DNA of 50,768 nucleotides, filler included, from Basidioascus undulatus (taxonomy: Eukaryota), in assembly GCA_000826855.1 (NCBI GenBank). It is 3 parts of 3 records of this genome, joined end to end, with 100 filler letters (N's around TTAATTAATTAA, not from the genome) between each part and the next. Parts side by side here need not be neighbours in the genome. Positions count along the whole stretch, not along the records: positions 33,929 to 50,768 come from JTLS01000561.1; 2 more parts are not named here. One strand, written 5' to 3'. The notes under the pieces are model-generated. The model made no database searches, was not told the origin of the DNA, and saw only the letters and a program-made list of their open reading frames with translations. The translations under genes were made by a program, and so were the position numbers. Shown here one piece after another: positions 3,967 to 47,971 of this stretch. Position 1 is the first letter of the stretch; each line of letters opens with the position of its first letter.

Positions 3967-5224
<1,258 letters not shown>

Positions 5225-7621: not shown

Positions 7622-9897
7622 CTAGTCCACCATAGTCTGCCTGAGCCTGCGGAGCAACGCGACGGCCTCCTCCCGTTCCGTTGCGTTCGTCGCGACGAGC
7701 TTCTCGAGGTACTGTCCCGCGAGCGAGCCGTTCCCGCGCCGCATCTCGTACGCCGCGAGGTACATGTACGACCCGGCGTAGTCTGCGACGCCGAGCCGGC
7801 CCTCGGAGCGCTCGACAAGGTCGTACACCCGCCGGTGCTGCGTCGCGGCTGCGTCTGCCTCGCCGTTCCGCTCGTATAGCCGTGCGAGCTTGAGCAGCGG
7901 CTGCGCGTCGGACGCGTCGCCTGAGAGGGAGAGGCAGCGCTGGTTGCACTTGATCGCGTCGGGGATACTGTGTGGGAGTGCAAGGGGTCAGCGCTTGCGG
8001 TGGGGGACGGAGGAGGGAGATGACGCACCGGTTCAGCTTCTCGTAGTTTGATGCGAGCGCTTGCCACATTCGGGTGTCGTACGGGCTGTGTTCGAGATAG
8101 ATACAACTCAGCGGTGGTCCCGTCTGAGAACAGAGGCACATACCGAAGAGCAGCCGCGCGCTGATAGTAGTGCAGCGCATACCTCGGCATGTCGAGGAGC
8201 TCGTACGTCTGCCCAAGGCCGTACCACGCGCGGTAGTCCTTGCGATTGACATCTTCAGCACCACGGCCCGCACATGTCAGCTCAGTTCCACGCATTGGCT
8301 TGGTCACGGCTGCGCGGGCAACACACCTATCGCGCGCCGGTACGCCTCAATCGCGGCGTGCGTGTTCTTGAGCTCGACGTACTCGTGCCCCATAAGCGTC
8401 CACGCCGAGAGGTACGACTTGTCGAGGCGCAGCGCGCGGCGGAAGTAGACGATCGCGCGCTCGTGCTCCTGGCGCAGCGAGTAGTAGTTGCCTGCCATCC
8501 CGCTGTCAGCGCTCATTCTTCGGCGTAAAGGGAAGGAAAGACACACCGATAAGACAGCAGACTTCTGGCCGGTTCTTGTTGACGCGGATGAAGCTGTGCG
8601 CGAGCGAGGACAGCTTCGCGCGGTTCTCCATCACGTAGAGGATGTTGCTGTAGAGGTCGAGGTCTTCAGTCCGATACGGATCCGCGGCGAAGATCTCTTC
8701 AAAGATGCGCTCCGCCTCGTCGAGCTCTGCACCCACTTCCCATCAGCGTCCGTAACGCCGCCGCTGAGAGAAGAGAGCTGGGAGACGCACGTCGGAGATT
8801 GTAGTGCACCAGCGCGCACTGGCCGCGGAGGTACAGACTATGAGGGAAAATGATCGCGAGCTCGTCGATCACGGCGTGCAGCTCCTCGGTCGCCGCGTGC
8901 AGGTCGACCATGACGTGCAGAGAAAAGAAGCGGAGCATGACACCCTGAGGCAGGTGCGGTTCGATTGCAGTGAGCTGTATTGCGGCCGGCCTCATAAGCG
9001 GACAGGAACCATAGGGAGACACGAGGGGAAGGGCGGACCTCGTCGGTGTCCTCTACGCAAGAGGCGAGCAGGAGCCAGGCGGACCAATTGTAGGGATAGG
9101 CGGAGACGGAGCGGATGAGGACATCCATCGCTTCGATGCGCTTTTTCAGCTTGTCGAGAATAATGCCCTTCCTGTAGAACAAATATCGAGTGTGTTTGAG
9201 CGTCAAGCAGAAACGAGTGGATTAGCGCGGACGCGAGACGTACAGATAAAGGAGGAACGGATCTGAAGGCTCGCCGAGCTCTTCGAGGATGGGGCGAAGC
9301 TCCGTATTTCGAGAAACACCACGCATGTCCTTGGTGCCTTTAAATACCCATATCAGAAAGACTATAAGGTGAAGCGGCAAGCCCTACCTACCCATGATCG
9401 GCTCGACCTCTTCTTGACACCTCCGCTCGCTCGCCTGGAGAGCTCAAGCTCAGCTCGCGAGACATTCCAGTGCTGAATGCATGGGTGCTCACCAGATATC
9501 TGGAATAGAGTCTCAAAAACCTCCCCGTCGGCCCAACACACCCCGCCAGCGCATTCGCACAGCGCTCGAGCTCCTTCCCATCAAAGTAGGCCTTGCCCAC
9601 CCGGAAGCGGTCCTCCTCCGCCGCGTCAGCCGGGTCCACGCCGGCCCCAGGCTCGGGGAGGAACTCGATCTGTTCTGGATCGAGATCGAGCGATTGGCGG
9701 GGGTGGGAGGTCGAGCGGGCGGGAGTGGACGTTTGGAAGAGTGGCACGTCGGGAGACGAAGGGCGGGACGGAAGCGAGGCGAGCAGCTCGGCCGCCCAGC
9801 GGGAGGCGACGAGGAGCCCGCGCGACGAGCAGTCTGAGACGGCGCGTCTGAGAGAACGCGCTATTTGCGATGGATTTTCGGGTGAGGCTGGTGGCAT
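7622..9897 (-). CDS. CDC23: Anaphase-promoting complex subunit 8 (TPR protein), multi-exon
   Basis: [15 protein letters not shown]-terminus, [71 protein letters not shown]. Confidence 0.93.
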
Positions 9898-10676
9898 CGG
9901 AGTGAGATTGAGGGATGTGTAGGTTGGGAAGGTGGAAAGGAGGACGCGTCGAGCCCGCGTCTGCCTTTCGGTCCCTGAATTCGCAGATGACAACGCGTTG
10001 CCCGACAGCTGCGACAGACTGCCTGCATTTCAACAGCGATCGAATGGTTCGGGTGTCCATTCATCTCATCAATTTCATGTTATTATTTTTCCCTGTAGTC
10101 TATAAACTCGGTAAATGAGCTGGGGGGAGCAGCTCTACGTAGTCTGCGCCGATGTGAGCCAACGTGAGTCGGTCACTGAAAACTTGTCGAAGGGTCGAGC
10201 GAGAGCGGCACCAGCAAGCAGAGCGAGGTTCGAAAGATGCAAATGGTTCGAGGGAAACGAGATACAACTGATTCGCTCCAGGCTTAAGTGAAAGAGAATG
10301 TCCCCTGAGTCGGGCGATGAACGATGCGGCGAAAGGAAGAGAAAGAGAGGCAGCCACAGGGGCGCAAGAGGCTGGCGAAAGATGAAGACAAAGGGGAAGG
10401 AAGGGGTCTCGCGCGTTGACGCGCCAGCGAGGCATCCCCGAGCTCGAGACAGCCGCCGTCCGGTCTTGACGTTCCTGTCGCGTTACAGCCGAGGACACGA
10501 TCCGTCGTGCATGGGACCTCGCCGCAGACATGCAGTAAGAGCGGAGCGCCTCTTCGCATTGTCGCTGTTACAGTTGCGAAGAAGAGAGTGCTACCAAAAT
10601 ACAGGTATTATGATTGGAAAGAGGTATCATGCTGAATATGCTGCGCCATCAACCCGAACACCACAATCGCCCCTCG

Positions 10677-13492: not shown

Positions 13493-15397
13493 ATGACCGC
13501 CGTCCAACCTCTGAAACGGTCACGCTTAGGCTGTGTGACTTGTCGTCGCCGTGAGCCGATCCCAGAGCGTTGACGTCTAACGCACCACGCTGACACGTAT
13601 ACGCTGCGACTAGGACACAAGAAATGCGATGAGGTGTTCGAGGATGGGAGCTGCCAGCGTTGGTAAGCCTCTTTAAAAATCTATCCCAAAGCCTCTGCGG
13701 CGCTGAAGACCCAATCTGAGCAGTCACCAATCCGGCTACGAATGCGTCTTCCCTCCGGCAGAGCTGCGGACGCGCTATAGCGGGAGGACGTACGCGCCCG
13801 CGAAGCGTGCGCGGAAGGACGCTGAGAGCGCTTCAAGTCCGCCAGAGACATCGTTGAGCGCTCGAAGAGCCTCCAGTCCGGCCGAAGTCCTGTTCCCACC
13901 GGGTTTCGCGATGGCCTGGCCGCTCGGTCCGGCCGGCTCGTTGGACGAAGCGATGAGGCTCGACGGAAGCCTCCAATTGATGCTGGGGAGCTTCGGGACG
14001 GGCCGAACTAATGTGAGTGGGCTGCGGGTGGAGCTCACCTGGGACTGGAACGACCCAAAAGCGGTCTGTGAGTCGGGTCTTCTCTCGTGCTCCAGTAACC
14101 CGTCGCATCGACTGACGATGATTCCTTGTAGACGACCGAATCCAAGGTGCATTGGCATTCACGGTTTATATGAACCTGTACTGACCATGGAGAATGTCCC
14201 GCAGATACTTGGCTCTCGGGCGGTTCCATTCAATACCGCGTCTCCATGGCGCCAGCACTTCGAGATCTTTCGTCCCGCAGCGTTCTGACGCTCGCCTCTC
14301 GGGATGCCGTCGTCCACGCATTCCGCTCTCGGATAATGGAGGACGGTGCGAAGGATTCGGAACTCGCTGCTGCTGCGGAGTACGACCTTGCCGTTTGCCT
14401 GCTCAACTCCGTTGCGTCTCAATGTACGCTCGAGGTACAGCTGCACACCATCTGCGACCTCCGTAAGCATGCAGTTCTCATCTCCTCGACATAGAGCTTA
14501 CGCACGCCGCAATTGACTCCCCCAGAACTATACAACTTCACCGTCTCTGGCGCGGCCCTCTGCTACGCTGCACTCGACCTCGGCGCAAGTCTTGTCCGGG
14601 CGGTGTACGGTGCCACGCCCACGCTCGACCTCGCTAGCCTGCGTGGGCCGGAGACCGCCAGTCTGAGGCTGTACGCGCTCGCCGATCTGTGCAGGTGCAT
14701 GTGCACGCGGGGGCGCCTTCCAGTGTAAGCGTTACACCTCATTGCCACACGTGTCCTCGCAACCGAAGTTGACGCCACTCCTGCGCTGAGATTCCATCTC
14801 ACCGCAATCGACCCTCCATCTCCCCGCTCTACATCGTCCCTATCCTCCCCCGAACCTCAACCTGCCGAATCCGATCTTTCCACCCTCCTGCTCGTTCCCG
14901 TCGAGCTCGGTGCCATCCTCTGCCAGATCTGCTTCCTCTCCTCCGCGTCGCCGGCCCTCCCACCGGACGACCTGCTCTCGCGGGCCGCGGCGCTCGAGCG
15001 CGCCACGACGGCCTTCACGCCGTCGATGCACAGCCCGACGGCGGACGAGCTCTGGCGACAAGCGACGCTCATTACGCTCTACCAGCGCCTGCACCGCGTC
15101 GGACCACTGCACCCGGCGCTCCGCGCTTCGCGTAAGATGATCCTCGGCCTGATGCAGGCGCACGTGGGCCCCGCGCCCAAGGGCTACGCCTTCCCGCTCT
15201 TCCTTGCCGGCACGCTATCGATCGAGGAGGACGACCGCGCGGCCATAAGGGCGCGGTGGGTCGCATCGGTCGAGAAGGGGTGGGATGAGGCGATGGAAAA
15301 TTTGGAGGGCATTTGGAGGGAGATGGATGAGGGCGGGCACACGCTCGACTGGTGCGAGGTCCTCGAGAGGCAAGGTCGAGCGGTGGCGTTTTTCTAG
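13493..15397 (+). CDS. Zn(II)2Cys6 transcription factor with fungal-specific C-terminal domain, multi-exon
   Basis: Three spliced exons rebuild KRSRLGCVTCRRRHKKCDEVFEDGSCQRCHQSGYEC (six Cys). The C-terminus FPLFLAG...LEGIWREMD...DWCEVL is typical of the Fungal_trans_2 type. Confidence 0.85.
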
Positions 15398-20495: not shown

Positions 20496-22947
20496 TCACC
20501 GCTTGAAAGGTTGTTGGACCTCTGTGAAGTCCGTCGGTCGCGCGCGTTTGACGCCGGCCATCGGTCGTCGTGCGCCGTTGACGGGGAGGCGGTCGTAGGG
20601 GGAGTCCTGCCCAGGCGGCTGTTGCATTGGGAAGGGGTTCTGTGAGGCGTTCTAAGTACAACGTTGCGGGTTGAACTGGAAGAATGGAAGTCAAGCGCAC
20701 GATGGCCGGAGGTCGGTAACCGGGCTGGAAGCCACCGCGGAAGCCTGCGACAACAGACGGCTCGGTGTTTAGAATAACAGAGTACTAACGGCTTGACAAC
20801 ATCAGAACGCACCGTTGGCCATCATCGGGTTCATATTACCCATACCCATACCGCCCATGCCCATGCCGTAGCCGCTCATGATCGGGTTCATCGCGCCGTA
20901 CTGCATCATCATCTGGTGCTGCTGTTGAGCTTGCTGCATTTGCTGTACGAAAGGCTACTGCATCAGTATCTACGAGCAATCAGTAAAGCACCCAGTCTCC
21001 GACACGCACGTTAAGCTGGAGAAGCTGCTGCTGAAGCATCATTCGTTGAGGCGGCGGGAGCTGCGAGGAACAACATGCGTGTTCAGCGACAATCAACTGA
21101 GCTCACACCGACTGAAAACCGTACGTTCGGGTTTTGCAGCATCTGCATGAGGCCGATGGCGGTAAGTTGGGCTTCGGAGACGGCTGGACCAGTCGGAGGT
21201 TGGGGACCGGAGAAGGTCTGCGGCTCGGGCGTGGCGTTCTTCGGACCGGTGGGTGGGGTGGCGGCGGACGGGCCAGTGGGCGGAGTGCCCTTCGCAGGCG
21301 GTGTCTGTTGCATCGTTAGCGACATGCGTAGCGGACATCGTCGAGAAACAATGAGAAACGAACCGGTTCCTGCGTGGCCTCCTTCCCCGAGCCATCATCC
21401 GCGCTCTCGGCAATCTTGGTCTCGATATAGTCCTTGACGCGCGTGTTCGCCTCGGTGTCGGGAAGGAGCTTGTCGAGCGAGCCGATCTTCTCAGCGCACT
21501 GCGGGCAAACGAAGTCGTTCTCGAGGAGATGGCTCTGGATGTGCTCCTCCGAGTAGCTCGTCCCGCAGCACGGCGTCTTGACGGGCTCGCGGAGAAGCTT
21601 GTTCGACAGCGGGTCGACGAGCGACGGATCGTCGGGAATCGTCTCTCGCACGTCTGCGGCGGTGAGCGCCTTCGGGCGAGTGCGATGGCGCTCCCAGGAA
21701 GCCCTAACAGAAAGAATGGCAGATCAGCGAATGGCAGCAGTGAGGGTGTAAACGAACACGAAGAAACGTACGAGTCGGGCTGCGCAATGACATGGCTACC
21801 GTCGGGCGTGATCATGACGCCTCGCCCGGCCGAGCCCGCGCTGTCCACCGTCTTCAGGAAGCTCTTGGGAATACCGGTCGTTCGCTTGAACCGCGGCTTG
21901 TTCTCGAAGTCGGGATTGCCGTTCGTGGGGCAGTCTTGGATCCAGTGGCCTATACGCCGAACGGCCGTGAGCACAGAAGTAAACATTGAACCAGAGCGAA
22001 ACCGACACACCCTTCTCTCCGCAACGGTAGCAAATGTAGCCCGGCGGCGTCGGCGTGACCTTCTCCGGCTCGCGCGGAGCGTACGGCTTCCGGGTCTGGG
22101 GGCGAGGATTGTTGTAGATGGGAGTGGCGCTGAAACGACAATCACGCCGTCGATCAGCATTAGGGACGGCACGACATTGCCTTGGAAAGTAACGCACTGA
22201 GACATGTGCTCTTGGGTCTCCTGCCATTGCTGCTCGGAAGCGGCGAACATGGCAGCAATCGCGTCTTGCTCGTTACCGGGGGACACAGAGGAAGGGGGGG
22301 CAGAGGAGCTCTGGAAGGGGGTCAGTACGGCCGCCTTGATTGGCGAGAAAAAGGCCGGCGAAACAGCACGGCTTAGAGAGACGAACGTAAGAAGGCTTCG
22401 CAGGAGGGGCAACATCGTCTTTTCCATCGAACCGACGCGACATCGAGGCCCGCCCAGAATGCGCGTTCCACCCACCACCACCGCCGCCGCCACCACCCCC
22501 CGCGCTCCCCGGTCCCCCTTCCCGTCCTCGAAAGCCCGGCTCGACGCGGCTGTCGGTGCCGCTGCCGGCGGCGTTGGTGTCGGCGACGTATCTGGCAGCG
22601 GTGCCTCTGCCGGGCTGGCGAGGCGGTGCGCGGCGTACGAGGACAGACGTCGAGCGGGGGATCATCTCCTTGTCGTCCTTGTACTCTGTTCAGCAAGAGA
22701 AATAAACGCAAGAGTCGGCCCACGTTGACGAGCAATCATGCGCAAGGGCACAGGACGGGGAAGGATGGGACTGACCTTCCTGGCCGGGTGAGTCGTGCTG
22801 GAGGACTAAATCGAAGTCGGTGCCCTTTCCCATCTTGTTCTGGATGATGATCTCGCGCTTGAGGTCAAAGACACTCATGGTCGTGCCGTCGAAGTTGACT
22901 CGCGCGGGGGTCTTTGAGCTTTTGAAGCGATAGTAAATCGAGCCCAT
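20496..22947 (-). CDS. MPE1: Cleavage/polyadenylation factor Mpe1/RBBP6 (DWNN + zinc knuckle + RING/U-box-like)
   Basis: IYYRFKSSK...FDLKREII (DWNN), PPPGYICYRCGEKGHWIQDCP, KRTTGIPKSFL, VKTPCC...FVCPQC. The 3' end is approximate. Confidence 0.9.
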
Positions 22948-23489
22948 CACGATACGACAGGGGAGAGTGGGCAAGAAAGCAAGAAACAGTGGATTGAGGG
23001 GAAGGATTAAGAGGAAAGGACAGGGCAAATAGGCCGAAGAGGGACGTCGCTGAACAGGTGCAAGGAGGAAACGCTTGCGCCAGGGTGGGCGCGTTCTCGG
23101 GGCGTGGCGGGTGGAGCGAGACAAAGAGGGGGCGGAAATGGAGGGAAAGACGGAGACGCGGTGGCTGCGCCAAAATCCTAGCTTTACGCTGTGAATGTGG
23201 TCGTCGGCGTGCTACGATGAGTAGAATAGCGAAATCAAAGGTGAGGGCGATGTTTTTGGTCGAGATCAGAGTGCAGACTCGAGCAGAACGGCCTTGAAGC
23301 GTGCGCCGTCGACCGACCGTAACCGCGACCCGCGTTGGCACGCTGCTTGCGCTCGCCCTCGTCCCATCGACCACCCGCCTTGCCTTGTCGGGCTCCTTCT
23401 CGCCTCATTCTTTCGCCTCCGTTACTGATCTTCGGCTGCACAATTTCGTTTGCTATTGCGGTTTCGCTGTCGTCCCCCTCTCGATCAAC

Positions 23490-24542
23490 ATGACCCGCTT
23501 GCTCTCGCTCTCGCTCCTCCTCGTCGCGGCGCACACCGCGTCCGCGCTGCACTTTTACATGCAAAGCGACGAGAGAAGGGTGCGTTTCACGCAGCGCATT
23601 CGTTGTCGTCGTCAGACTGCTCACAAGGTGTTGACCTCCCTGTCGCTCCTGCAGTGCTTTCTGGAAGAGCTCCCGAACCACACGATGGTCGTCGGTAGGT
23701 CGTGCACATCTTGTGCTGTTCCACGCTGCGCTGCTGTGTCTGTACAACGGAGGACTGTGATCGAAGATAGCGCTGGGTGGGAGGTGGGAGATGGGAGCAA
23801 GTGGACACATGCGCCGGGAGTCTCCGGGCGTCTTTGGGCACCACGGACGCTGAGGGGCGAAAGCTGACCCGAGAGGGCTCGCGCTGGCAGGACGCTACAA
23901 GGCGGAAGACTTCAACCGCGAGGAGCAGAAGTGGTACGTCAACCCAGAAATCGGCATCCAAGTACAAGTCGAGGTCTGTCCTTTTCTCTTTACGCTCCTC
24001 GACTTCCCGTCATCTTGGTGCTCACACCGATCCGGCTGCGCGCTGCAGGAAGTTGCCGATTCGCACGTCGTCGTCAACACGCGTGGGCCGGCCGAGGGCT
24101 CCTTCACCTTCACTTCGCACGAACCAGGCGACCACTCCATCTGCCTGTCGTCGAACGCGACTTCGGGCTGGTTCGAGGGCGCGCACGCTCTCCGCGTGCA
24201 CCTCGACATCGCCGTTGGCAATGTCAAGCGGGACGATTCCGTGGACAAGGACCACATCAACTCCTTGACAACTCGTGTAAGCAACTATTCTATCGGGTTA
24301 AGTGATTGTGCTTACCTTGTTTGTCATCGGCACAGATCCGCGACCTCAACCAGAAGCTGGACGATATCCGCAAGGAGCAACAATTCCAGCGCGAGCGCGA
24401 GGTCGAGTTCCGCAATCTCTCCGAGCAAACCAACAGCCGCGCCATATGGTGGTCGCTCATTCAAATGGCCGTCCTTGCCGCAACGTGCTACTGGCAGGCT
24501 ACCCACCTCCGCCGCTTCTTCAGCGCGAAGAAGCTCCGGTAA
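23490..24542 (+). CDS. p24/emp24/gp25L family cargo receptor (p24-alpha, Erp1-like)
   Basis: Signal peptide, LHFYM...CFLEELP, GSFTFTSHEPGDHSICL (GOLD domain), QREREVEFRNLSEQTNSR, TM, and C-terminal FFSAKKLR. Confidence 0.92.
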
Positions 24543-25032
24543 CGATCTCGGGGACTTTGTATTTCAACATCCGGGGGTTCATTTGCTTTCGATATCTAGC
24601 TGGCTGCATTTCGTCTCATCTGTTTCACGCACGCATCGCATACCCATTGCTTCTTGGTCGCCTGCAAGAGGAGGTCAGAGTACAAGTTCAACTGGGTTCA
24701 GCGCATCACACAATTGCAGGCTCCCACGTTAGTTTGCTAAGATTGCAACCATTGTGTTATTCGCTTGCTTCAGAATTGCATGTACCCTGCAATACTATGC
24801 TTCACGATTGCTTCGCGGTGTGGGTGATGGAACGAGGCAACGAGGGTTAACGTTCAGAAAGGCCAATCCACGGATGCGACGCGTCGCGCTCATTAAACGC
24901 GCTTCGACTGCCCAGGCTCGGAGTTCGCCCTCAAGTTCGTTCGTTCCACCTTCCCCCTGCTCTCCCTGCTCCTCCTACTCGTCCCAAAGCGACTACATCT
25001 TTCTCTATACAATCGCACGGTTTTCCGACAGA

Positions 25033-37672: not shown

Positions 37673-40600
37673 ATGTCCACCACCGTTTCGACCGCCATCC
37701 CCGCGCACATCTCGCCCCTCGCGCAGTCCGGGCCCGCGCACTTCCACCCGCTCGACCCGCTCACGCCTGCAGAGGCAAATCTTGCCGCGCGAGAATACGC
37801 AATACTGGAAACCACTCTAATCTGCACTTTTATCCGCCCCTTGACAGATCACCCTCGCGAGCGACATCGTTCGCAGGCACGTTGCCGAGAACACGCCGAT
37901 CAAGGCGCTCAAGTTCGTCGCGTCCTTCACTGTCGAGCCGCCCAAACTAGATGGTACGCTTCCTGTCCTTCTTTATTCCCTCCACCATGCGCTGAAGACT
38001 CTGTGCAGTCCTCGCCTTCCTTGGAATTCCCACCGCACCCGGTGCGGCGCCGGCACCCAAGCCCGCGAAGCTCGACCGCAAGGCGGAGGTGCACTATATT
38101 GGTCTGGTGGAAGGGTGAGTTTGGCAAGCAGAGATTTAAAAGAAAGCATTGAAAGAGGCTGATAGGAAGGTGACGGAATAAAATTACAGAACCGCCTTCA
38201 CTTCAACTGTCCTCCTCTCCTCGCCCACCTCTGGTTCTGTTTTGGAGACGACCCAGCTCCCCGAGGGCACCCAGCCTGCCCTGACGATCGAGGAGCTCGT
38301 GGTCGCTGAGGAGGCGCTGCGGAAGCACCCGGAGGTGGTGAAGCTCGCGCGCGAAGTTGGTACGTTTTCCTCCCTTCCTTCCTTCCTTCCTTCCCTTTTC
38401 TCGCACAGCATCCTCATCATCCTCCCGGTTCCAGGTGTTGACGCGCACCAGCTCTACGCGGACGGGTGGTCGATCGGGTACGACGACCGGTTCCCGTCCT
38501 CGCTGCGCGTGCAGCAGTGCCTGCTCTACGCGCGCTTCGGCCCGGACGACAACCAGTACGCGCACCCGATGGATTTCTTCCCTGTCCTTAACTCGAACAC
38601 GTACGAGGTCCTCGCGATCGATTTTGCCGCGCACCGCACCACCCCCAAAGGCGCCCTGTCTTCGTCGTCCACCCGCCCAGCGGCGCTCGGCGAGGATGGC
38701 TTGAAGCAGAGCGGGCGTGAACGCATCCCCCCGCCGTTGGAGCCGTTCGGTGCGTTCTTTCTAAGTTTTCTTCAATGGATTAGAGCATAATTTTTCTTGC
38801 GTCTGGGCTGGAAAATTGTGATAGACTATCTGCCCGACCTCATGGCGCAGAAGAAGACCGGCACCGGCGCCGGGTGGAAAGAACGCGACGACCTCAAGCC
38901 GCTCAACATCACCCAGCCGGAGGGGGTGTCATTCACGATGGAGGGCAACCAGATCTCTTGGCAGAAGTGGAAGCTCCACATCGGGTATGTCTCCACTCCT
39001 CACTTCCCTTCCTGGGCACTCGTGCATCTCACTCGCCCACCAGATTCCACTACCGCGAGGGGATTGTCCTTTCCACCGTAACAGTACGCTCTCCTCTAAG
39101 AAATTTCATGTTTGGTTCAAAACGCTCTGCTAAGGCGAATACGTGTTGGGGGAACACAGTACAACGACGATGGCAATGTCCGTCCTGTTTTCTACCGCAT
39201 GGGGCTCGCGGAGATGGTTGTTCCTTACGGTGAGCCTCAGCGATAGATCTGAAGTCTGAGGCACGCAGCTTGAACAGTCGTTCCCGGTGGAAACAATGTG
39301 CAGGCGCGCCCGAGTACCCGCACCCCCGCAAGTTCGCATTCGACGTTGGCGAATACGGGTTGGGCGTGCTTGCGAACGAGTTGTCGCTCGGTTGCGACTG
39401 CAAGGGTGTCATCCAGTTTGTCATTTCTGTTCCTTCAACCTTTAAGCGGGGAAATAGGGCAGTGCTTAACCTATAGACTCGCATGAACAGTTACCTTCCT
39501 GGCGCTTTTGTTGGGCACGACGGAAAGCCGACCATTGTGAAGCAGGCCATCTGCATTCATGAGGAGGACGCCGGACTGTTGTACAAGGTGCGTGCTCGTC
39601 CTTTCACAGCTCCTCCGTTGGAGGCTCTGAAATCAATCATCTGGTACCATAGCACGCCGACTACCGTCCCGGCGGTCGTGCGGTCTCGGTCCGCAGCCGC
39701 AAGCTCGTCATTTCGCAGATCTGCACTGTGAGTTTCAGGCGCTGCATCCGTGCGGGCTGCGACTGACTTTTGTACGGCTGCGCTAGGTTGCGAACTACGA
39801 GTATGCGATCTACTGGAGTGCGCAAACCCGTCGTTTAGCTACTCCTTGCGCGTTGTTGTTTTCTGACACGCAGACACTGTAGACTTCTACCAGGACGGGA
39901 ACGTGGAGCTCGAGATCCGTCTGACGGGAATCCTGAACCTCTACGTGCGTCCCATATTGTTCGGGCTTTTTTGTCCTACCTAAAATGCACCACTAACCTA
40001 CCCCCGTCCCCGCACCCCTCCAACGCAGGTCCTCGGCCAGGGCGAGAAGCCGAACGGCTTTGGCACGGAAGTCGCGCCCCGCATCAACGCACACTACCAC
40101 CAACACCTCTTCTCCCTGCGCGTGGACCCCATGATCGACGGTGTGCGCAACACGATCGTCGAGACGGACGTGGTGCCTGTCGAGGCGCCCACCGGCTCCG
40201 CCGAGAACTTCGCTGGCAACGCCTTCACGACGCGCAAGACCGTCTTGAGCACGACTGCGCAGGGTGCGCGGGAGTTCGACGGACACCGCATCTGGAGCAT
40301 TGTAAATGAGAACAAGCTCCATTATGCGTCGGGCCAGCCGATCGGGTACGTTATTCCGCATCGAACCCCTTGCTCCTATTTCCGTCCGCTGGCGGCACAG
40401 TCGATACTCACGGTTTGGCTTGTGTTCACAGGTACAAGGTGATGTGCAAGGACATGCCCCCTCTGCTTGCGAAGCCCGACTCGTGGGTGGCTACCCGCGC
40501 TCCGTTCGCGACCAAACAGCTGTGGGTTGCGCCGTCGAAGCCGGACCAGCTCTGTGCGGCTCAATTTTTTCTCCCAGCTTCACCACTTCCTTCCTGGCTG

Positions 40601-41140
40601 ACCTCGGACCAATATGTGTCTCTCTTTTTCGACAGACCCCGCTGGCAAATACGTCCCGCAGACGCGCTCGACTCCAAAGGACTCGATCCTCGCCTTCACG
40701 GCCGGCAACCAGAGCATCCGCAACGAGGACATCGCAGCCTGGTTCACGTTTGGTGTGACTCGTACGTCTCTTCTTCGTATCTCTCCTTGCTCATCATGCT
40801 CACACTTTGTCATTTCGCACGAAGACATCCCTCGACCCGAGGACTTCCCTGTGTGCGTTTCCTTTCATTCTGCTTTCCACCGTTTGAAATTGCAGTACTG
40901 ACTTTCAGCTTAATAAACAGCATGCCTGTGTAAGCTCTCGCTTCCCTCCCACCTATTTCTCCGCCGCGGCGATCAGCTAACTTCCAACCGAACCGAAACA
41001 GCGAGCACTGCCGCCTTATGTTCAAGCCCGCGGGCTTCTTCGACCAGAACCCTGCGCTGGACGTGCCCTCTTCGGCCGACCTTCGCTCGCAATACGCTGT
41101 TTCGAGTGCGAGCTGCTGCACGCCACAGTCGCGTATCTGA
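37673..41140 (+). CDS. Copper/TPQ-containing primary amine oxidase with many introns; C-terminal SRI is PTS1-like
   Basis: HPLDPLT..EI, AFDVGEYGLG, NELSLGCDCKG, ICIHEEDAG, TVANYEY (TPQ precursor), HYHQHLF, and THIPRPEDFPVMP (third Cu His). Confidence 0.95.
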
Positions 41141-46635: not shown

Positions 46636-47226
46636 TTAAGCACCGAGGGTGGAGAGGAGCTTTCCGAACAACGCCCAGGCAACAAAGTCAGTCACTTCCG
46701 CCATGAATCAAGCAACATCGAGGATCAAATAACGCACGTCAGAGTCACCAGCGTCCGAGATGGTCATGACACCGACGCGGAAGAGCTTGCCGGCGGCGGT
46801 GCCGAGGGCGACGTTGGTGCCGGCGTAGTGGTGCACGGCCGTCTTGGACAACATGGCGTAGTACTCGAGCTCCGACTTGCGCAGCGGCGGGCAGTTGCCG
46901 GAGATGAGGACAAGCTTGGCTGTTTGCACCGTAGTGCCACAGCGAAAGAGGAAGGAAGAGAGGGAAGGCGGAGCGTCAGCGAATCAGTGGACCTTCTCAG
47001 CCGCGCACGGCTCCAGTCCGGTCGTCCCTCCCGCTGTCCATAGACCCCTGTCCCCACCGAGAGGGAACCCAGCCTGGAAGTTTAAAGAAAGAAGGGGCTC
47101 ACCCTTGCCGGAGCGGAGCTGCTTGAGCGCGCTCTTGTAGCCGAGGGTGTACTTGCCCGACTTGACAACAAGCTGGAGCTTGCTGTTGATGTTGTCGGAC
47201 GTCTTGGTCTTCTTAGCGGGGGCCAT
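46636..47226 (-). CDS. RPL30: 60S ribosomal protein L30 (eL30); exons 47226-47103, 46919-46738, 46659-46636
   Basis: [62 protein letters not shown]. Confidence 0.97.
46989..47019 (-). promoter_or_regulatory. Predicted kink-turn RNA element (eL30-binding type) in RPL30 intron 2
   Basis: Transcript GGACU-GGA-GCCG-UGCG-CGGC-UGA-GA-A-GGUCC forms a canonical stem, 3-nt bulge, tandem G.A/A.G pairs, an A.G third pair and a 5-bp closing stem. Confidence 0.7.
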
Positions 47227-47971
47227 CTGCGGGCGATGGGCAGTATCGTCAGCGTCAATGTAGACGAGCGTGTAAACCGCGATGCGACAGCCACGCACTG
47301 CTGCTTGCTTGCTGCGTCGGAGGGAGTGAGCGTCGCTGGACAAGACCAGAACTGCGAAGACGAAAAGCTGATGAGGCGGAGGAGCGCGTGGGAATTGATA
47401 TCTGTGCAGCTGCAAGGAAGTCAGCTCCGCCAATCTAAAGTCCGTCGCCGTCAAAGGACCTCTTGTTTTGAAAAGTCCAGCGGCGTGCCTTTTCGATTGG
47501 TATATGAAAGCTTACCTGTTAGATCTGAGCTGACGCGAACGGAAGTGAAGCACTAAGAGCGAAAGACAAGACAAGACAAGACCAAGTTGATGAGGCCATG
47601 CTACTGCACCACTCCAGAATACAAGCCCGCCTTAACACCGACACGCGTCCCAGCGACCCATATCCTCGCAGCCTAGCAGTCACTATATGTTCTACTCCCC
47701 CACGCCAGGGGGGACGGCTGGAAGAAAAGCAAGCTGGCCCTCCACACTCTATCGCACTGCGCTTGCTACCTGAGTCCCCTCCCTGCGTGTCGCACCCTTA
47801 GGCGTGTGATAAAAGAGCCCCCAAACCCTCTTAGGGAACAAAATTGGCCCCGTCTATGGTTGTTCCTCCCGACAGACAAAACTCTCAAACGCGGCTGCGC
47901 TGGCGTGCAGTCTCCTTACCCCTTGTCTTCCGAGCCACTGTCTCCTGAGTTTTAAGCCCTTCTTCACCTCA

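Follow-up and report, generated by a model that had tools for sequence, protein, structure and literature searches.

A conserved kink-turn beside the branch-like motifs of RPL30 intron 2 in Basidioascus undulatus, a probable site of eL30 autoregulation

The window analyzed here is a 50,768-nt stretch of DNA from Basidioascus undulatus, and on its minus strand lies RPL30, the gene for ribosomal protein eL30. The second intron of this gene contains a 31-nt hairpin with the sequence features of a kink-turn (K-turn), which ends immediately upstream of two branch-like motifs. We regard it as nearly certain that RPL30 has in this hairpin an RNA element that is functional and conserved. Judging from its sequence and setting, it is likely to be an autoregulatory kink-turn through which eL30 would block recognition of the branch site by the U2 small nuclear ribonucleoprotein (snRNP), a relocated variant of the circuit known from yeast. 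An original prediction made from the same sequence had placed the element inside the eL30 pre-mRNA on the sense strand, and it does lie there. The hairpin is built from a canonical (C) helix and a noncanonical (NC) helix on either side of the kink, with the following parts.

46989..47019, minus strand: whole kink-turn hairpin, 31 nt in intron 2, reading GGACUGGAGCCGUGCGCGGCUGAGAAGGUCC; matched by covariance model R2
47015..47019, minus strand: 5' strand of the NC helix, GGACU, pairing with GGUCC at 46993-46989, with a terminal U.G beside the G.A pairs (from the fold)
47012..47014, minus strand: non-bulged strand, G(3n) G(2n) A(1n), partners of the sheared A.G, A.G and G.A pairs (K-turn definition as given in PMC5061560)
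47000..47011, minus strand: C helix GCCG/CGGC with a UGCG tetraloop (from the fold)
46994..46999, minus strand: bulged strand, with the UGA bulge at 46999-46997, G(1b) A(2b) at 46996-46995 and A(3b) at 46994
46989..46993, minus strand: 3' strand of the NC helix, GGUCC (from the fold and the alignment)

By definition, a kink-turn has a 3-nt bulge and, 3' of it, G.A and A.G pairs, placed between a C helix and an NC helix (PMC5061560, Huang & Lilley 2016), and at the sequence level the hairpin has this standard layout. The minus-strand letters at 47019-46989 are those given in the original prediction, and they agree with the consensus kink-turn at all diagnostic positions. Folded in isolation, the 31 nt form an outer stem of 5 bp that leads through an asymmetric internal loop to the GCCG/CGGC stem and its UGCG cap, with an energy of -13.4 kcal/mol (z = -2.28; equalled by 5 of 200 shuffles). 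A strict kink-turn descriptor, requiring an NC stem of at least 5 bp and a C stem of at least 4 bp, had a single match on both strands of the window, namely this element. Applied to 40 dinucleotide shuffles, the same descriptor gave a mean of 1.1 matches per window, about one per 101 kb of shuffled sequence, so that such hairpins are not rare genome-wide; in the roughly 400 nt of non-coding RPL30 transcript, about 0.004 matches are expected. Taken as a single sequence, the hairpin makes only a moderate case for a kink-turn. A search of Rfam returned no family in the region at E values up to 10, and none at the gathering score in 20 of the loci described below.

The stronger evidence is comparative. 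Metagenome contigs were scanned with exon 3 of the gene, which yielded 80 RPL30 loci, and an intron at the same codon position as intron 2 is present in 66 of them. The block GGGACUGGAGC-loop-GCUGAGAAGGUCCC occurs in 58 of these 66 homologous introns; one further locus, L041, starts within the block, the contig end cutting off the remainder. Relatives thus have the element, a point on which the original prediction had staked itself. A covariance model, R2, was built from 24 distinct elements (alignment A3) with the window excluded. In the window it matched exactly 46989-47019 on the minus strand, with 31.1 bits and an E value of 1.6e-6, and the next window matches reached 9.5 bits. In the loci it gave one full-length match each in 58 of the 80 (40-56 bits), plus the cut one in L041; all of these matches lie on the sense strand and within the homologous intron, with none elsewhere in the 199 kb.

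All 58 carrier loci are closest to eL30 of Agaricomycetes, at 84-100% identity and from several orders, their best matches being in Trametes, Russula, Leucoagaricus, Mycena, Termitomyces and Coprinellus, as well as Amanita, Pisolithus, Suillus, Sphaerobolus and Athelia. The eL30 protein of the window was compared with named basidiomycetes of several classes and is 80-90% identical to them, with none closer, so that the element spans distinct lineages. The eight intron-bearing loci without it are Rhodotorula-like (L008, L035), Mucoromycota-like (L040, L061), chytrid-like (L075) or near a JGI protein and Saitoella (L052, L055, L063), where L035, L052, L055 and L063 were excluded from the final classification for stops in a crude translation of their exons, and their labels come in part from a first classification by summed high-scoring segment pairs that was distorted by over-long database proteins. 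Since the intron-bearing loci that lack the element best match other groups, the intron position appears to be old and the element to have been added within Basidiomycota. The agaricomycete locus L001, an intron-less and cDNA-like copy, has no element, as expected if the intron had been spliced out. Among the database proteins themselves, seven Agaricomycetes eL30 entries (P0001, P0004, P0016, P0034, P0039, P0042 and P0049) have 130-183 residues instead of about 115; we suspect that these are gene models reading into introns, perhaps including the intron with the kink-turn.

The distribution of conservation within the element follows the kink. Mean pairwise column identity is 0.98 in the 3' strand of the kink (C-helix end, UGA, GAA and NC strand), 0.89 in its 5' strand (NC strand, GGA and C-helix start) and 0.82 in the branch motif, against 0.44 in the loop and 0.38 and 0.32 in the two intron flanks. 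Across 53 distinct sequences, the non-bulged GGA is invariant, the columns homologous to GGACU of the NC helix are paired in 94% of cells, and every sequence has a C-G pair at -1b,-1n and A.G at 3b,3n; in alignment A1, identity in the columns of the bulged strand (31-36) is 96-100%. According to Huang & Lilley, the C-G at -1b,-1n is common to HmKt-7 and the U4 kink-turn, HmKt-7 has A.G at 3b,3n, and a G at 3n allows kink-turn folding in Mg2+ (PMC5061560). The two kink-proximal pairs of the C helix (G-C and C-G) are kept among relatives, and the rest of that helix is variable. Counting the window, there are 59 carriers with complete elements, in which the NC helix has 5-9 bp (7 bp in 35). The C helix measures 2 bp in 46 of them, 3 bp in 10 and 1 bp in two, and has 4 bp in the window only; loops are 3-9 nt and hairpins 31-35 nt long.

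The host gene occupies 46636-47326 on the minus strand and was identified by translation and by matches to eL30 chains of the Protein Data Bank (PDB); its product has 109 residues. Its parts, from 5' to 3', are as follows.

47227..47298, minus strand: intron 1, 72 nt, within the 5' untranslated region (UTR), its last base abutting the ATG (from the spliced contig)
47103..47226, minus strand: exon 2 (coding), from the ATG at 47226 through base 1 of codon 42 (translation and X3 contig)
46920..47102, minus strand: intron 2, 183 nt, phase 1, between Lys41 and Ala42, GT..AG (the X3 contig skips exactly 183 nt)
46738..46919, minus strand: exon 3, core of the L7Ae-type RNA-binding domain
46737-46660, minus strand: putative intron 3, about 78 nt, drawn from the reading frame only and outside the transcript contig
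46659-46636, minus strand: putative last coding exon, LLSTLGA and stop, likewise drawn from the reading frame only and outside the transcript contig

In a contig of sequencing run X3, position 46919 abuts 47103 and position 47226 abuts 47299, so that introns 1 and 2, both GT..AG, are precisely missing from it. The run is recorded as "DNA?"; nevertheless, the depth of this contig (about 4069, versus 18-45 for genomic contigs) and the exact loss of both introns suggest that it is transcript sequence. Intron 2 is without cover in the X3 contigs, in which minor retained forms would not be visible. The borders of this intron, 47102-46920, are those of the original prediction, as is its length, which at 183 nt is more than twice that of its neighbours (72 nt for intron 1 and about 78 nt for the putative intron 3). 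At its 5' end the X3 contig carries 30 extra letters that are unmatched upstream of 47326, and the break (window 47326-47327) is not at an AG; these letters could reflect a further exon upstream, a chimera in the contig or an artefact at the start site.

The product of the gene is itself a kink-turn binder, as indicated by two features of exon 3. It aligns without gaps over residues 40-99 to the yeast L30 chain 1t0k_B, from the complex of L30e with its mRNA (E 2.8e-21), and it keeps the Phe equivalent to F85, which is the most prominent RNA contact of yeast L30 (PMC3706390).

Directly downstream of the hairpin stand the two branch-like motifs named in the original prediction, and their adjacency extends to the other carriers.

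46983..46988, minus strand: branch-like motif 1, ACUGAU, its A 5 nt past the last NC pair; it holds the retention stop, TGA at 46986-46984
46975..46980, minus strand: branch-like motif 2, GCUGAC, aligned by MAFFT with a CUGAC/CUGAU motif of other loci

In all 59 carriers the A of a YTNAY motif lies 2-10 nt past the last NC pair, at a distance of 8 nt in 38 of them, and in 42 of the 59 introns this adjoining motif is the sole one of its kind before the 3' splice site. The start of the element is 21-31 nt past the 5' splice site in 55 of the 59, and 83 nt in the window. If intron 2 is retained and read in frame, the TGA at 46986-46984 is reached, as had been claimed, and an in-frame stop is present in 54 of the 59 introns.

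These features fit the following mechanism. The U2 snRNP needs sequence-independent contacts in about 20 nt upstream of the branch point. When free eL30 exceeds the demand of ribosome assembly, it would bind the kink-turn on the nascent transcript, eL30 being the ligand that we infer from the identity of the host gene. With only 2-10 nt between the end of the kink-turn and the branch-site adenine, the stretch just 5' of the branch point would be occupied by the bound protein together with its sharply bent RNA; this is the stretch needed by BBP/SF1 and by the U2 snRNP for its SF3a/SF3b "anchoring" contacts. Stable U2 recruitment would then fail and intron 2 would be retained, and the premature stop would prevent synthesis of eL30 from the retained transcript, which would probably be degraded. 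By analogy with yeast, the affected step would be the same (U2 recruitment), and the site seems placed to act on it by direct occlusion.

Several observations speak against this interpretation or against parts of it. In 17 of the 59 introns further YTNAY motifs lie nearer the 3' end, and the adjacent motif is perhaps not always the one used. In the window, 56-64 nt separate the branch-like motifs from the 3' splice site; in view of this distance and of the several candidates in the 17 introns, we treat the adjacent motif as a presumptive branch point. Retention would not interrupt the reading frame in every carrier, since 4 of the 59 introns are a multiple of three without an in-frame stop. 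The short C helix makes many versions closer to a K-loop. In minimum-energy folds of whole introns, the NC helix is absent from all nine examined (the window intron and 8 others); the kink strands pair instead with pyrimidine-rich flanks, with z near 0. These folds argue against a hairpin that is constitutively formed, and they are compatible with a kink-turn captured by protein or by Mg2+, in line with the folding behavior described in PMC5061560. Finally, the covariation analysis proposed with the original prediction gave no significant support to the helices of the element, the sequences being too alike. RNAalifold found changes on both sides in 0 of 9 predicted pairs, and none of the five measures of a pair-count test exceeded shuffles: 87% of cells are paired, a value reached by 312 of 500 shuffles, and two-sided changes occur in 2 of 11 pairs against a shuffled mean of 1.3. 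The changes that do occur are one-sided and keep pairing (A-U to G.U in 12 of 53 sequences, G-C to G.U, and U.G to C-G once). The helices are thus supported by conservation and compatibility only.

Other explanations of the conserved hairpin were weighed against the same data. It could be a real kink-turn that serves as a general intronic element and is bound by another protein of the L7Ae family, such as Snu13/15.5K, Nhp2, eL8 or eS12, which we consider unlikely. Kink-turn recognition is indeed common to L7Ae-family proteins (PMC5061560), thousands of 15.5K-bound intronic K-loop RNAs are described in a bioRxiv preprint of 2026 as suppressing host-intron excision in mammals (10.64898/2026.08.03.742641), and the 2-bp C helix of most carriers is K-loop-like. 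However, the RPL30 intron is the only place where the element was found, with no second match above 9.5 bits in the 50.8-kb window and one per locus in the 199 kb, and it has neither a box C (UGAUGA) nor a U.U at 3b,3n. Moreover, its core resembles kink-turns located elsewhere in the RPL30 transcripts of other fungi, which points to the gene's own product.

Equally improbable, in our estimate, is a protein-independent structural element conserved for splicing efficiency, which would display the branch site or bring it effectively closer to the 5' splice site. The near-constant spacing, both from the 5' splice site (55 of 59) and to the branch A (38 of 59), would suit such a role, and structural enhancers of this kind have been described for yeast RPL7B (PMC12311795). 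A purely structural hairpin would nevertheless tolerate compensatory changes, yet GGA, UGA and GAA are the most invariant positions (96-100%) and it is the loop that varies; nor is the hairpin favoured in the whole-intron folds.

Conservation without covariation cannot by itself separate constraint on DNA from constraint on RNA, and a DNA-level site, for example an intronic transcription-factor site that only happens to look like a kink-turn, was therefore considered too. We give it very little credence: the agreement at every kink-turn position occurs in the gene of a kink-turn binder, the 12 changes from A-U to G.U keep pairing in RNA and would be meaningless in DNA, the fixed distance to the branch motif is a feature of RNA processing, and the same core recurs with different sequence in the RPL30 UTRs of other lineages. 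A chance hairpin in a GC-rich intron, for which the shuffle frequency of the strict descriptor and the modest z of the single hairpin might have spoken, is refuted for practical purposes by the covariance-model matches in window and loci, that is, by 58 of 66 homologous introns and by an independent model.

An autoregulatory kink-turn recognized by eL30 thus remains the explanation that we favor, and kink-turns at other places of RPL30 bear on how the element may have come to its present position. In loci without the intronic element, the core GGAG opposite C-NNN-GA-[A/U]-G was also found elsewhere in RPL30, as listed below with the nearest group of each locus.

L075 (chytrid-like), 333-363: compact 5'UTR hairpin that stops 8 nt short of the ATG
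L021 (uncertain group), 1345-1372: compact 5'UTR hairpin of opposite topology, 2 nt before the ATG
L070:478-530, L077:367-420 and L026:1-56 (Pezizomycotina-like): long-range kink-turn whose bulged strand, GA-U-GG, contains the AUG
L048:1226-1267 (ascomycete-like, group uncertain): bulged strand covering the AUG and the 5' splice site, GUAUGG following at once
L035:1875-1901 and L002:1237-1268 (Pucciniomycotina-like): conserved 3'UTR kink-turn with different loops
L008:854-910 (Rhodotorula-like): 3'UTR kink-turn
L037:1763-2056 (Pezizomycotina-like): three putative tandem introns 3' of the eL30 stop, each with a kink-turn

The NC helix of L075 (ACUCU/GGAGU) is wholly unlike the basidiomycete one, and the kink core is the same. 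Among the Pezizomycotina-like loci, the C helix is GCGC/GCGC in L070 and L077 versus GCUC/GAGC in L026, a compensatory difference. The 3'UTR kink-turns of L035, L002 and L008 are about 120-140 nt into the 3'UTR, and the intronic element is absent from all three loci; L035 and L002 have in common the core UCUGAGAAGAGUC-loop-GACUUGGAGA with matching flanks, and their loops are GCAA and ACCUUCGGG, respectively. In L037 the three units run from GTAGGT, GTACGT or GTATGT to YAG and contain hairpins at 1763-1791, 1850-1888 and 2023-2056 with a common C helix, GUCC/GGAC. These kink-turns end 8-9 nt before GCTAAC, CCTAAC or ACTGAC and, compared with the window element, are of opposite hairpin topology.

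Two further loci are given here as separate observations. In L061 (780-960, with the ATG at 959), the distance to the ATG downstream is about 170 nt for CCUCUGGAGCCG and 5 nt for CCGGUUAAGAAGGAGG, and an apparent 5'UTR intron separates them; by eye, the two strands may form a long-range kink-turn. The chytrid-like L004 has two eL30 coding copies in opposite orientation, with descriptor matches antisense to both, at 114-174 and 448-506.

In 21 non-carrier loci, the sense strand has 14 compact matches with the eL30-type core and the antisense strand has 2 (binomial p 0.004), where the signature was chosen after examples had been seen and the matches are not independent; the same signature has 9 matches on both strands of the 50.8-kb window. 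Loose kink-turn descriptors count against an enrichment, with 36 sense-strand versus 33 antisense matches in the upstream regions (a scan in which the rows of L009 are unreliable, its ATG having been misplaced) and 31 versus 27 in whole non-carrier loci. We therefore present the spread of kink-turn placements in RPL30 as a lead rather than a result.

In other fungal RPL30 loci, kink-turns of the eL30 type occupy either UTR or the AUG with the 5' splice site, and this fits the description of the intronic element as "relocated", a term of the original prediction. As the other kink-turns stand at the start codon and in the two UTRs, the element seems to move. A wider interpretation, which we offer tentatively and hold to be somewhat doubtful, is that kink-turn feedback by eL30 is ancient and general in fungi, that its cis-element has been mobile among at least four places of RPL30, and that the branch-adjacent design arose at least twice. 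The four places would be the AUG together with the 5' splice site, the 5'UTR just ahead of the AUG (as a hairpin), the 3'UTR and a branch-adjacent position within an intron; the two origins would be the ancient phase-1 intron, in Agaricomycetes and the lineage of the window, and the putative 3'UTR introns of L037. If this interpretation is true, occlusion of the branch site by a ribosomal protein would be a recurrent way to control splicing.

Outside RPL30, the window contains other fungal genes with many short exons. Pieces of open reading frames (ORFs) at 3970-4539, 9391-10029, 14729-15394, 21319-23211, 23854-24729 and 38182-40930 were matched to a cap guanine-N2 methyltransferase, Cdc23/ANAPC8, a Fungal_trans_2 factor, a protein with DWNN and U-box domains (Mpe1/RBBP6-like), emp24 and a copper amine oxidase. 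The amine-oxidase exon is 53-63% identical to sequences from all three basidiomycete subphyla, with Ustilaginomycotina at the top. Six long ORFs of the window had no Pfam family, and a protein search with one long ORF returned unrelated repeat proteins only. Upstream of RPL30, at 47562-47650, contigs of runs X1 and X2 match the window with 5-6 differences and a 6-nt gap in a cttgt repeat, which suggests a short dispersed or allelic repeat.

Among known systems, the kink-turn of helix 58 in the large-subunit rRNA is the ribosomal site of eL30, the ligand site that autoregulatory sites are thought to mimic (PMC3706390); it belongs to rRNA and is not a regulatory site. For archaeal L7Ae, self-regulation through a kink-turn in its own 5'UTR has been proposed (Daume et al. 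2017, PMC5539422), and as described there the control is translational and involves no splicing, unlike that envisaged for the window element. The mammalian klRNAs (10.64898/2026.08.03.742641) are likewise intronic kink-turn or K-loop elements, and they suppress removal of the introns that host them; according to their description they have terminal C/D motifs and are stable small RNAs bound by 15.5K, whereas the window element is specific to RPL30 and has no box C/D. A box C/D kink-turn or small nucleolar RNA (snoRNA) was rejected as an identity of the element, which has no UGAUGA, has A.G at 3b,3n and a loop of 3-9 nt without room for a guide, and had no Rfam snoRNA match.

A closer relative is the "rpl30 motif" of Li & Breaker (2017, BMC Genomics 18:785, PMC5640933), which is also a conserved structure of fungal RPL30 with a purine-rich internal loop and was proposed by its authors as an L30 binding site for autoregulation. 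As reported there, it has 47 examples in 26 species, those listed being Pezizomycotina, and forms a large hairpin located mostly in the 5'UTR. By that description it is set apart from the window element, which is intronic, compact (31-35 nt), adjacent to the branch site and basidiomycete. The form seen in L070, L077 and L026 is probably this published 5'UTR motif and resembles the arrangement in yeast. Neither the intronic element nor the "rpl30 motif" was found in Rfam 15, and in the open-access literature we found no report of a branch-adjacent kink-turn in a coding-region intron of RPL30, nor of one in Basidiomycota.

The closest system in function is the RPL30 site of yeast (PDB 1T0K), for which alone binding and regulation have been shown. 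Like the window element, it is a kink-turn on the sense strand of its own transcript with a G at 3n, and the proteins belong to one family, as the match of exon 3 to 1t0k_B indicates. When yeast L30 binds its structure, to which first exon and intron start both contribute, U1 can bind and U2 is blocked (PMC11585973), and the outcome expected here is alike, namely failure of U2 recruitment and an unproductive transcript. However, the yeast site consists of the first exon and the start of the only intron and persists in the mRNA, where it also controls translation; yeast L30 binds the mature mRNA and helix 58 of rRNA as well (PMC3706390). The window element, in contrast, is a compact hairpin wholly within an internal intron of the coding region, which is spliced out and cannot act on translation, and it has A.G at 3b,3n where the yeast L30e site has U.G (PMC5061560). 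Because it lacks the yeast-type location (first exon or 5'UTR with the 5' splice site, kept in the mRNA), we describe it as a probable functional counterpart of the yeast site, not as the same element.

Among ribosomal proteins that control splicing of their own pre-mRNA, the textbook example is yeast RPL30; although its site overlaps the 5' splice site, it is U2 that is blocked, at a distance. To our knowledge, RPL30 autoregulation has been studied almost only in Saccharomyces. A branch-site version would offer a clean test of the way in which a small RNA-binding protein prevents branch-site recognition, evidence of a feedback far older and more widespread than budding yeast, and an example of a regulatory RNA that moves within a gene while its protein partner stays fixed. 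Feedback by eL30 through a kink-turn is already known from yeast; the intronic, branch-adjacent form proposed here appears to be new.

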